From the sequence record OR861627.1: 49,337 bases of DNA; one strand, written 5' to 3'. Source of the DNA: Escherichia phage phiD2-2. The first letter of the stretch is position 1; the number at the start of each line of letters is the position of its first letter. The position numbers were made by a program, and so were the translations under genes. This document shows positions 613 through 11,009 of the stretch, piece by piece. A model generated the notes under the pieces. It was given only the letters and a program-made list of their open reading frames with translations, was not told the origin of the DNA and did not search any database.

Positions 613-1100
613 TGAGCTTAAAAAATAACGTTATAGGCGCATCGATCGGGGCTGCTTTGACGTTGACACCCACCCTACTGGAACGAATCGAAGGTATAGA
701 ATACGAGGTGTATTACGATATAGCCGGAGTCCCTACCGTATGCAGCGGAATAACCGGGCCGGACGTCATACCTGGTAAGAAATACACTAAGCGAGAATGC
801 GATGCATTGCTGATAAAACATATCGGCGTCGCTCAGCGATACGTTGACAAAAAGGTGAATGTTGATATTCCGGTAACGATGCGCGCGTCACTGTACAGCT
901 TCACTTTCAACGTTGGAACTGGCGCGTTCGGATCTTCTACAATGCTTAAGCTAATAAATCAGAGTAAGCACAAGGAAGCGTGCAATCAGTTATGGCGATG
1001 GGTATACTACTACAACCCAAAAACCAAAAAGCGAGAAGTGTCTAGAGGACTCAAGAACCGACGCGCTGAAGAATACGCGTATTGCGTTAAGGAATTATGA
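612..1100 (+). CDS. endolysin, T4-lysozyme-like (GH24) with N-terminal SAR signal-anchor
   Basis: N-terminal weakly hydrophobic segment [16 protein letters not shown] followed by E-x8-D-x5-T catalytic spacing ([26 protein letters not shown]); 162 aa. Confidence 0.8.
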
Positions 1101-1501
1101 TGAAACTGAAGAAAACGTGCATTGCGATTACAGTGGCTGTTGGTGTTATTTCTCTATCCGGTTGCTCTACGGCATCTGCCCTGAGCGGTTTAATCGGATC
1201 TAAACCGGAAGTTACAGCACAAATCGGAGAGGAGAACACAAAGCAATTAGCAGGAGTAACCGCAAAATCCGAAGATAAGCGAGATGTTAAAGTTGAGAAG
1301 TCCAATGTAGGAAAGATTGACTCTTCCTTGAAGAAGTCAATTGAAGTGTCAACCATTAAGGCTAACACGGTTAACGCTGAAAGCATCACAATAACAAAGC
1401 CAGAAAACTGGTACGATGCAATTGTAGGATGGACTCTCGTTTTCATTGGCCTATTGCTGGTTTATTTTTCAATTCGTAAGGACGAAAAAAAAGGAGGCTA
1501 A
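1097..1501 (+). CDS. unimolecular spanin (T1 gp11-like lipoprotein with C-terminal TM anchor)
   Basis: Signal peptide plus lipobox (VISLSGCS) and a single C-terminal TM helix ([15 protein letters not shown]); overlaps endolysin stop (ATGA). Confidence 0.7.
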
Positions 1502-1516
1502 GCCTCCTTTTCTTTT
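1486..1516. terminator. bidirectional rho-independent terminator between spanin and leftward operon
   Basis: A-run, stem AGGAGGCT/AGCCTCCT, T-run; both convergent genes end here. Confidence 0.7.
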
Positions 1517-1856
1517 ATGCATCTGCCCACATGTAACTCTCGTTAGTGAGTTTTGCATATTCTCGAACTTCAAACTCGCAAGTGTCACCGTACATCTCAG
1601 CAACCTTCTTCTCGTTAGCTACCGCTGATTCTTCGGTCCACCCATCAGCTTTACTGTAAAGAGTAGGAATCTCACTGCTAGTACCGTTTGAGTGATTGTA
1701 AACGCGAACTACTAAAAATTTGTTAGCCGTGATGTTTTCCTTCAGGTCGTTTCGTTTCGATGAAACAAATATACCCGATGCGAGATCGGGTGTTTTAACA
1801 AAAAGTGCTATTTGTACCTTTTTACGTGAAGGAGTAACTCCCCCTCCTTGTCGCAA
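1515..1856 (-). CDS. hypothetical protein; true start unclear
   Basis: Track ORF starts at a TTG; a boundary cassette lies inside the ORF at 1792-1810 and the codon at the expected start position after its AAGGAA RBS reads ATC, not ATG. Confidence 0.3.
   Translation of the reverse strand: MRQGGGVTPSRKKVQIALFVKTPDLASGIFVSSKRNDLKENITANKFLVVRVYNHSNGTSSEIPTLYSKADGWTEESAVANEKKVAEMYGDTCEFEVREYAKLTNESYMWADA
1714..1810 (-). promoter_or_regulatory. gene-boundary cassette lacking a canonical start codon
   Basis: TAGCACTTTTTGTTAAAAC, hairpin, TATATT, ATCGAAACGA, AAGGAA, then ATC where ATG is expected. Confidence 0.45.
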
Positions 1857-1919
1857 AGATTATGCTCGCTTTCGTTACTGGCCCTCATTGAAGTGAGTAA
1901 CAGACTCAACAACCCTTGC

Positions 1920-2327
1920 TCAAATTCTTCTTTCGTAAGCTGGAGCCTTGCGCACAATTCGACGTTCCGATCTATCAATGTTTCTACGTTCGCCAAACAA
2001 ATCTTCATCACTCATCTCTCCAATGTGCATCATTTCCCACGTATACCGATTGTTGTAGCCATCAATACACATCAGCTTCATCATTACCGGGCGCTTAATC
2101 TTTCCCTTGCACCAGTAAACTCCATCCTTGCGATCTAAGTAACCCTCAGTCACGCAACGAGCGCAAAACTCCTTAGATAGCGCGCTTGTAAATTCACGGC
2201 GAGTCATTCCAGCAGCCTTAGCAAATCGCTCACTTTCCTTGTGGGCGTATATAAATTTCGCTATGTGCTGTCGAGTGTATTTGTCGTAACCTTCGCAGAA
2301 TATGAACAGATCTAGAAGAAGCAGCAT
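1920..2327 (-). CDS. hypothetical protein (135 aa)
   Basis: Track ORF; start 4 nt after the stop of the upstream gene, suggesting translational coupling. Confidence 0.45.
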   Translation of the reverse strand: MLLLLDLFIFCEGYDKYTRQHIAKFIYAHKESERFAKAAGMTRREFTSALSKEFCARCVTEGYLDRKDGVYWCKGKIKRPVMMKLMCIDGYNNRYTWEMMHIGEMSDEDLFGERRNIDRSERRIVRKAPAYERRI

Positions 2328-2331
2328 ATCA

Positions 2332-3900
2332 TTAACCCATCAGCCGAGGATTAATGAAAACAATATCATCAATCCGGCAAGTGTAGTTCATCTCTTCGAG
2401 CGTGATAAGAAGACTATCGATTCGCTCAGATACTTTCTGTTGACCGTTGAAAGGCGTAACGTTCCGGCACTTTGCAACGATGCTATGAATAGGTGCGCGG
2501 CCTTTGTTTTTCTTCGCGATCTCAGTGATAACATCAATCAGCTTACGAGATTCAGCCTCATCACCAGCATACCCGGCAGCGCTGGCAGACGACAGATAAG
2601 TCCTGGAAAGCTCATTGAAGATCATGATTGCTTCCTGCATTGTTTCAAGGTCAATCTCACGGTTGGAACGGTTCGGTGATTCACCCTCCCAATTCTTGAT
2701 CGTGTGGAGAACTGAAGCAATACGCAAGGCGTGCTTATCGAACTTGCCGAGATGACCGCGTAGCATTGAGTGAGAGTATTTCCCACCTGCGGCGAAATCC
2801 GGTTCCATCGCCTGACGCGCAAGGTTTAATTCACGCATAGCATTACGGCTTACAGAGAGAACAACGTTTTCCTCCTTCATGATGTTGTGAACGAGTCTGT
2901 AATATTTGCTAACCAGTCCTCGATCGACTTCTTTATACAATGCATCACCATTTTCATCACAAAGAATACGAGTACCTAAAAGCGGTTCCTCGCGAACTAA
3001 CAGGAAGCGCTCAGATACACCGATACCTCGTTGGCCTGCGTCCATGATACCTTTGATTGTTTCATCCTGCGCAATTACGCAGATCGAGCCAACCGGGCAA
3101 AGAGACAAGTTGTTGTCCTGATTGGAGCGAGCGACCTCCATATGGTTTTTATCCCACGCCTTAAGAATAAGCTCACTGTTAGATTTCTTATCTGAACCTC
3201 CATACGTAAGACCGAGCAATGTATTGATTGCCGTTGCCTCATCAGAAATTACGGAAAAGTGGCCCTGAACAGCGGCTACTTTCGCAAGACCTTCAGGTGT
3301 AGGATCTGATACAGCAAAAACAATATCAGCCATCTTTTTGATCTTCTCTTCCAGTTTTTCTTTGTCCTCGTATAGTGCCGCAGTCGTGTTTCCTTTAGGA
3401 TCATTCTTGATTTCCTTCTCAACCTGGCGTAGCTGACTGGTTAAACGAATACGTTCCTTTTTGCGCTCTTCATTCAGTCGCTGAATCTCCGCACGCATAG
3501 GTGTAATCGCCGCTGAGTTAATCGCGGACTTACCTGTTGATGGTGGCTGGCTGATTACCATGTAAAGCGCGGTCGGCTGTTCCTCTCCGTGATATTGCAC
3601 CCAAAACTTCCCGAGCATCGCGGCTGAGATGCAACCTATAAAATGAGCATACGCGGATGAAACCGGGAACTGGACTGATTCAGCTTTTGCTTTTGCATAT
3701 TCGAATACCAGGTTATCGCCACCTAACGAAATCAGAGGGAACTTATCGTTGCCGCTATTGATATCGATCGGATCTTGCCAAAATGAAACTGAGTCACCAT
3801 AGCTGTTTTCACGAATTGCGATCGCCACCGGATTAACTCCAGTGCTATTGGCGATCTCAATAATCTGTTGGTAATTCAGTTTTGGCTTAATATTAAACAT
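2332..3900 (-). CDS. P-loop NTPase, DUF3987-like putative replication/helicase-associated protein
   Basis: Walker-A-like PPSTGKS, long coiled-coil insert, acidic VISDEAT Walker-B-like stretch; ATG (MFNIKPK) preceded by AAGGAG. Family assignment is from memory of the architecture. Confidence 0.45.
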   Translation of the reverse strand: MFNIKPKLNYQQIIEIANSTGVNPVAIAIRENSYGDSVSFWQDPIDINSGNDKFPLISLGGDNLVFEYAKAKAESVQFPVSSAYAHFIGCISAAMLGKFWVQYHGEEQPTALYMVISQPPSTGKSAINSAAITPMRAEIQRLNEERKKERIRLTSQLRQVEKEIKNDPKGNTTAALYEDKEKLEEKIKKMADIVFAVSDPTPEGLAKVAAVQGHFSVISDEATAINTLLGLTYGGSDKKSNSELILKAWDKNHMEVARSNQDNNLSLCPVGSICVIAQDETIKGIMDAGQRGIGVSERFLLVREEPLLGTRILCDENGDALYKEVDRGLVSKYYRLVHNIMKEENVVLSVSRNAMRELNLARQAMEPDFAAGGKYSHSMLRGHLGKFDKHALRIASVLHTIKNWEGESPNRSNREIDLETMQEAIMIFNELSRTYLSSASAAGYAGDEAESRKLIDVITEIAKKNKGRAPIHSIVAKCRNVTPFNGQQKVSERIDSLLITLEEMNYTCRIDDIVFINPRLMG

Positions 3901-3972
3901 CACAATAAACTCCTTGGTTGACGGTGTAAATGATACACCGCCAATGGTACACGCGTTTTGCAAAAAGTGCTA
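3901..3972 (-). promoter_or_regulatory. gene-boundary cassette upstream of the DUF3987-like gene
   Basis: TAGCACTTTTTGCAAAAC, hairpin CGGTGTA/TACACCG around TATCAT, CCAAGGAG leader. Confidence 0.5.
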
Positions 3973-10520: not shown

Positions 10521-11009
10521 ATGAAAATCAAATTAATTTGCACTGGCGGTTACAAGGGATTTACCCGAGATCTGGAAGCGGACCCTATCGTGGTTGATGC
10601 GGTGAAGTGTGATTCCAGTACTGGAGGCTACCGTGTTAAGGTTGACGATCTGGTAAAAGCTGGCGTGTACGATCTTGATTATGGGCTTTCGGTTAGCCCG
10701 GTATTTGGTCCGGCCGACTTCAACGAGAAAGACGGAACGATGTTCTTTTTTGAGTGGGAAGTGCAAGCGAACGTCAAGCCTCGTAAGGTTCGACTTCTCA
10801 ACAATGGCGGCTACCCGATGAGACCAGGTTATGAGAATCGCACGTTCCCAGTTATTGTGGACTTCACCGAAATCACTAACAAACTGGTCTACGTCAGCAA
10901 TGAGCATTTCCAGGCTGTAGGATTCACTGGCGGTATGCATAAAGAAGCGCTGTGCTTCGTTCGAGAAGAAATGCACGGTTACTATTCTGAGTGCGAGTTA
11001 GTTTACTAA
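10521..11009 (+). CDS. hypothetical protein (162 aa)
   Basis: Track ORF with cassette and GAGGA RBS. Confidence 0.6.
   Translation: MKIKLICTGGYKGFTRDLEADPIVVDAVKCDSSTGGYRVKVDDLVKAGVYDLDYGLSVSPVFGPADFNEKDGTMFFFEWEVQANVKPRKVRLLNNGGYPMRPGYENRTFPVIVDFTEITNKLVYVSNEHFQAVGFTGGMHKEALCFVREEMHGYYSECELVY

Follow-up and report, generated by a model that had tools for sequence, protein, structure and literature searches.

The locus is likely best explained as an accessory gene unit of T1-like phages, complete in itself, in which a recent change of the start codon from ATG to ACG would have produced a near-null allele. The module reads along the minus strand from a repeat cassette through a 71-codon gene to a bidirectional terminator. 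A single T-to-C transition at position 1729, in the lineage formed by phages FCWL1 and phiD2-2, has turned the initiator ATG into ACG. This is an ordinary case of a lost start codon, in an accessory gene whose family and preceding repeat cassette are both already known, and it involves no new mechanism.

Genomic context and organization of the locus

The window, by which we mean the whole stretch of 49,337 bases analysed here, is the genome sequence of a T1-like coliphage (Drexlerviridae, Tunavirus). Identity with phages IME18 and SH2 was 96–98.7% over the first 6 kb, and a 3.3-kb stretch around the locus was 100% identical to Escherichia phage FCWL1 (PP558327.2). A literature search for FCWL1 and phiD2-2 found no genome paper, the sole mention of FCWL1 being as a phage whose capsid has been solved. 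The locus is located at the end of a leftward gene block that contains a helicase gene (2332–3963) and a YdbL-like gene (1920–2327). It is faced by the rightward lysis genes, which encode holin, endolysin (612–1100), and spanin (1097–1501). The features of the locus, in window coordinates, are as follows.

1793–1813, minus strand: AAATAGCACTTTTTGTTAAAA, a copy of the 21-nt direct repeat known from T1-like phages and the most 5' of the cassette elements.
1773–1791, minus strand: 7-bp hairpin ACCCGAT-ctcgc-ATCGGGT between the repeat and the −10-like box, with a T-rich run after it.
1768–1773, minus strand: −10-like hexamer TATATT, 22 nt downstream of the TTGTTA of the repeat.
1749–1762, minus strand: conserved leader box CATCGAAACGAAAC, also found in the cassettes starting at 30, 6571, 9426, 10447, 14760, and 47379.
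1738–1742, minus strand: Shine-Dalgarno sequence AAGGA, invariant in close orthologues.
1731–1733, minus strand: ATC, a spacer triplet, the last of the 7-nt spacer between Shine-Dalgarno sequence and start.
1728–1730, minus strand: ACG, the mutated initiation codon (ancestral ATG), with T to C at 1729 (G on the plus strand).
1515–1730, minus strand: 71-codon gene body with its TAA (1517–1515), a member of phrog_27210 / VOG10338, intact except for the start codon.
1485–1514, both strands: bidirectional intrinsic terminator, stem 1489–1511 by terminator scan, common to the gene and the convergent lysis operon.
1731–1856, minus strand: spurious 5' extension of a 113-aa open reading frame (ORF) from TTG 1856, crossing the cassette from its repeat to its Shine-Dalgarno sequence, hairpin and −10-like box included.

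The terminator at 1485–1514 had a predicted RNA fold of −19.7 kcal/mol (z −4.5) and carries a T8 tail on the minus strand. It is polymorphic among the sequences that carry the ACG: both T and A occur at position 1500, and two contigs have a T-run shortened by one base.

Upstream of the gene, a 67-aa ORF (1808–2011, minus strand) reads in another frame across the 3'-terminal part of the YdbL-like gene and uses the TAG within the 21-nt repeat as its stop codon. The annotations of CLB_P3 (BPP3_14, VOG8724), vB_SsoS_008 (gp079), and Stevie (gp42) include small ORFs at the counterpart site. The 67-aa ORF may be a real overlapping gene.

The repeat cassette upstream of the gene

The cassette at 1714–1813 on the minus strand is real and complete, with the repeat, −10-like box, leader box, and Shine-Dalgarno sequence all in place. 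A reading made from the sequence alone (hereafter the sequence-only reading) had described a complete leftward cassette at about 1714–1810, and we recovered every one of its elements on the minus strand between 1813 and 1738. The repeat AAATAGCACTTTTTGTTAAAA at 1813–1793 showed no mismatches to the search pattern and fitted exactly the consensus aaATAGCACnnnTTGnTAAAA. This 21-nt direct repeat consensus was described in phage TLS and has been noted in T1, Rtp, and Rogue1 (PMC11447400). The TLS repeats are intergenic, lie ~76 nt upstream of start codons along the direction of transcription, and have a function that is still unknown according to the authors (PMC11447400). In the window, the repeat motif occurred 29 times against 4.8 expected, and the number of repeat copies was ~20. 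The copy studied here is on the strand of the gene, and the distance between its TAGCAC and the start position is 80 nt, inside the range of ~60–83 nt found for most other copies.

The hairpin between the repeat and the −10-like box had a predicted RNA fold of −9.4 kcal/mol (z −2.8) and was terminator-like in the scan. Its pairing is kept in orthologues, where a double change in XY3 has replaced T-A by C-G and atuna and mar001J1 have a G.T pair. Its equivalent site in phage Stevie is annotated as a terminator. Nested inside the cassette, the hairpin may act weakly as a terminator of transcription arriving from upstream.

Across the window, 15 of the 23 repeat cassettes had a distance of exactly 22 nt from TTGnTA to the −10-like hexamer downstream of it, a spacing too long for a sigma-70 −35 element. 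The cassettes considered in this connection start at 30(+), 1810(−), 4472(−), 6107(−), 6571(−), 8686(+), 9426(+), 10447(+), 11734(+), 13387(+), 14760(+), 43847(+), and 47379(+). Two sub-classes could be distinguished, one with a hairpin occupying the 17 nt before GGG-TATAGT and the other with a TGn extended −10 and an inverted repeat bracketing the −10.

Identification of the start codon

Reading along the minus strand, AAGGA (1742–1738) is followed by AAACATC (1737–1731) and ACG (1730–1728), and no ATG, GTG, or TTG is found after the Shine-Dalgarno sequence. The initiation region is predicted to be unstructured (MFE −5.3 kcal/mol, z +1.4). Elsewhere in the window, complete cassettes have a gap of 6–8 nt, mostly 7 nt, between GGA and the start codon, as exemplified by GAGGAAAGCATCATG at the cassette starting at 11008. 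In the arrangement GGA-AAACATC-ACG, the ACG lies 7 nt from GGA and the ATC 4 nt.

The comparison with orthologous loci that the sequence-only reading had proposed was run on 14 loci, from CLB_P3, ISF002, Sfin-1, IME18, SA12KD, Sfin-3, damhaus, BIFF, an ADB-2-like contig, an SH6-like contig, XY3, atuna, mar001J1, and vB_SsoS_008. The codon aligned to the ACG of the window was ATG in 13 of them and AAG in the remaining one, vB_SsoS_008. A 216-nt coding sequence beginning at the aligned ATG is annotated in the orthologue records. The orthologous ATG and the within-genome spacing from GGA together place the start position at the ACG, and the 13 ATG codons at this site indicate that the change was a T-to-C transition at 1729. 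The sequence-only reading had taken the ATC at 1733–1731 for the expected start. We ruled this out by its spacing (4 nt vs. 6–8 nt) and by the alignment, in which the ATG of the orthologues falls one codon later. The triplet preceding the ATG is ATC or ATT in close orthologues, and other triplets occupy this place in vB_SsoS_008 and in the orthologues of 72% identity.

Of the 216 nt of coding sequence, the C at 1729 alone is unique to the lineage of the window, which marks the mutation as recent. Over the 61 nt around the start (1700–1760), one of 90 phage records, that of FCWL1, was 100% identical to the window.

Occurrence of the ACG allele in independent sequences

The sequence-only reading had also raised the possibility of a wrong base call, in which case the true sequence would be ATG. 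A single-base difference from all close relatives is what such an error would look like, and the FCWL1 record has had handling problems, with coding sequences flipped in place in its version 1. However, the same C is present in two separately named GenBank isolates, FCWL1 (PP558327.2) and phiD2-2 (protein WRH07537.1). The exact 113-aa ORF containing the ACG was found on 15 contigs, one being PP558327.2 and the others Logan contigs assembled from at least nine different SRA and DDBJ runs (SRR34094698, SRR17478310, SRR23619850, SRR23619853, SRR35777054, SRR34831172, SRR24736400, DRR869229, and DRR869217). All ten placements shown read ...AAGGAAAACATCACGGCT... and were 99.9–100% identical to the window over the 1–3.3 kb compared. 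The contigs included at least three haplotypes, separated by two helicase positions or by the terminator loop and T-run, and ACG was common to every one. No Dam or Dcm motif is present at the site, which rules out a systematic miscall through such a motif. Given two isolates, at least nine independently assembled runs, and micro-diversity around an unchanged ACG, a base-call error can practically be dismissed. The ACG is an inherited allele of a near-clonal and widely sampled lineage.

Two further observations concern the records themselves. In version 1 of the FCWL1 record (PP558327.1), every minus-strand coding sequence had been reverse-complemented in place, so that all genes were on the plus strand when compared with 900–3960 of the window. 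Version 2 is colinear with the window, the first deposited sequence having been scrambled. Furthermore, members of the gene family and near-complete copies of the clone were found in a large number of unrelated sequencing runs and in assemblies labelled Escherichia coli, Shigella sonnei, and Ralstonia pseudosolanacearum, a distribution suggestive of carry-over of, or contamination by, T1-like phages in bacterial sequencing projects.

The 113-aa open reading frame

As the sequence-only reading had noticed, the only long ORF at the locus (1515–1856, 113 aa) runs through the cassette from an upstream TTG, and we found that this crossing ORF corresponds to no conserved coding sequence. The ORF is annotated as gp64 in FCWL1, and annotators called the same ORF in vB_SsoS_008 (gp078). 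With its frame open over 113 codons and its presence in two records, it could be taken for the real product of the locus, starting at TTG 1856. We find this hardly credible. In-frame stops 5–27 codons upstream of the ATG close the extension in 8 of the 14 orthologues, and on this ground the ORF was rejected as a true gene. No Shine-Dalgarno sequence precedes TTG 1856, and the added codons cover the cassette in front of the 71-codon gene, from its repeat through hairpin and −10-like box to its Shine-Dalgarno sequence. Expression from the TTG would require read-through from upstream across the terminator-like hairpin. The PHROG profile is 71 aa long, as are most of the listed members of the protein cluster, and no Pfam match was gained through the extension. 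Furthermore, the two records that annotate the ORF are exactly the two without an ATG at the start position, as would be expected of a gene caller forced upstream. We therefore regard the 113-aa ORF, in FCWL1 as in vB_SsoS_008, as a gene-caller artefact. For annotation, the true gene of the locus is the 71-codon member of phrog_27210 with a mutated start, not the 113-aa gp64.

The encoded protein and its family

When codon 1 was set back to Met, the translated 71 aa matched phrog_27210 with an E value of 1.5e-51, residues 1–71 aligning with positions 1–71 of the 71-position profile. The family carries the label 'unknown function' in the database. At position 1 of the profile, the canonical initiation codon is absent here, being replaced by ACG. 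The conceptual protein is acidic (pI 4.7, 8.1 kDa) and 99% identical to the protein of damhaus, a phage of another subfamily.

No domain was found in a Pfam search of the 71-aa protein. A word-index homologue search returned six proteins, all uncharacterised, and HMMER, run exhaustively against 1.84 billion representatives, yielded six hits and no functional assignment. Two of these six hits were FG-GAP multi-repeat proteins with short matches to residues 9–53, which we judged to be repeat or composition noise. The AlphaFold (AF2) model of the protein has a beta-beta-alpha-beta arrangement with a pLDDT of 76. It had no significant match in the PDB, where the phage UDG inhibitor p56 scored best (E 0.76), and matched only family members in BFVD.

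The pN/pS of the gene family was 0.085 over all pairs, excluding vB_SsoS_008. The family is thus under strong purifying selection in the relatives that carry ATG.

Dispensability of the gene and its decay in a relative

The whole unit, from the GCAC of the repeat to the stop codon (~1809–1512), is cleanly absent from SH2, which retains the terminator, and the whole module is also absent from T1. Shigella phage vB_SsoS_008 (MK335533, 305–680 of the locus) has independently lost the same ATG, to AAG. Unlike the window, it also has a damaged repeat (TTACCGTTAAAA), has lost the T-run of the terminator, and carries 12 unique nonsynonymous changes, which are clustered. Its pN/pS against its nearest relatives was 0.4–0.7. 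The absence of the module from SH2 and T1, together with this independent decay, argues that the gene is accessory and dispensable. The locus of vB_SsoS_008 could reflect either genuine decay or low-quality sequence; as decay, it would give a picture of a later stage in the fate of the same gene.

JGI metagenome contigs, scanned by exact pattern, contained neither the ATG nor the ACG context. Five relatives were found in IMG/VR, all of which carry ATG.

Consequence of the start codon change

The promoter-like elements, the Shine-Dalgarno sequence, the spacing, the frame, and the terminator were left untouched by the mutation. Since the promoter-like elements and the terminator are unchanged, the transcript is probably still made. 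When initiation from all 64 codons was measured in E. coli, ACG fell in the class of 0.1–1% of AUG and AUC in the class of 1–2% (Hecht et al., bioRxiv 10.1101/063800). On the basis of this value for ACG, initiation at the mutated start would fall to ~1% of the wild type or less. The loss of the start codon would thus probably nearly silence the gene, with an expected drop in expression of about two orders of magnitude. The result would be a very recent near-null allele of a dispensable gene, either an incipient pseudogene or a strong hypomorph. We infer that the change is without functional consequence for the phage.

The sequence-only reading had suggested a lost start in an eroding pseudogene. 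The loss of the start holds, as an ATG was replaced by ACG, but the lost codon is the one that follows the ATC, and there is no erosion beyond one base. Compared with its intact orthologues, the gene has one disabling lesion, the lost ATG. Relaxed constraint or further decay is not seen, as the frame is intact and the 216 nt contain no other unique substitution. In the absence of a second lesion, the allele would be at most an incipient pseudogene. The coding body is fully intact and gives no sign of relaxed selection in the ACG lineage.

An intact coding sequence would also be expected if the gene were still translated at a meaningful low level from the ACG (1730–1728) or the AUC (1733–1731), as a tolerated or selected down-tuning. 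Initiation at ACG in E. coli gives a Met N-terminus (Hecht et al., bioRxiv 10.1101/063800), and both ACG and AUC yield detectable Met-initiated protein in this host. Nothing has been damaged in the Shine-Dalgarno sequence, its 7-nt spacing, or the initiation region, which is unstructured, and the ACG lineage is widespread and slightly diversified with its ORF still undamaged. The ACG at its optimal spacing, or the in-frame AUC 3 nt upstream, would give some protein, and the amount could still be functional. However, non-canonical initiation at either codon, which was among the alternatives of the sequence-only reading, is possible at trace level only, with an expected yield of ~1% or less. None of the other orthologues has a near-cognate start and 13 of the 14 have ATG, which speaks against a non-AUG start as a conserved design; ACG was found only in the FCWL1/phiD2-2 lineage. 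The recency of the mutation explains the intact ORF equally well, and the near-identity of the lineage over the stretches compared leaves too little divergence to show selection. Functional initiation at the ACG or the AUC is unlikely in our view. It is less likely still that the change represents a selected throttling of a dosage-sensitive accessory protein to ~1% of its normal level, which would have aided the success of the FCWL1/phiD2-2 clone. If true, it would be a natural case of a bacterial virus using an ACG start.

As a recent near-null allele, the locus may provide a natural, near-isogenic knock-down of an uncharacterised and strongly conserved accessory gene of T1-like phages, which could be compared with ATG-bearing relatives for phenotype.

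Comparison with known systems

The ACG resembles near-cognate initiation sites in E. coli in that it likewise lies at the optimal distance from the Shine-Dalgarno sequence. Natural AUU starts, such as that of infC, are conserved and regulatory. Whereas non-canonical starts of the infC type are conserved, the ACG is a lineage-specific derived state, and its orthologues have ATG. The repeat itself is like the other 21-nt repeats of T1-like phages, and what is peculiar here is that the gene downstream of it lacks its ATG. The closest counterparts of the gene are found in phrog_27210, a family of hypothetical 71-aa proteins from Drexlerviridae, where the proteins of Sfin-1 (Sf11_46), ADB-2 (B508_00390), and damhaus (gp37) share 94–99% identity with the product here over all 71 residues. 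The position between a YdbL-like gene and the spanin gene, the cassette, and the terminator are also alike. The difference lies in codon 1, which is ATG in the members from Sfin-1, ADB-2, and damhaus and ACG in the window.
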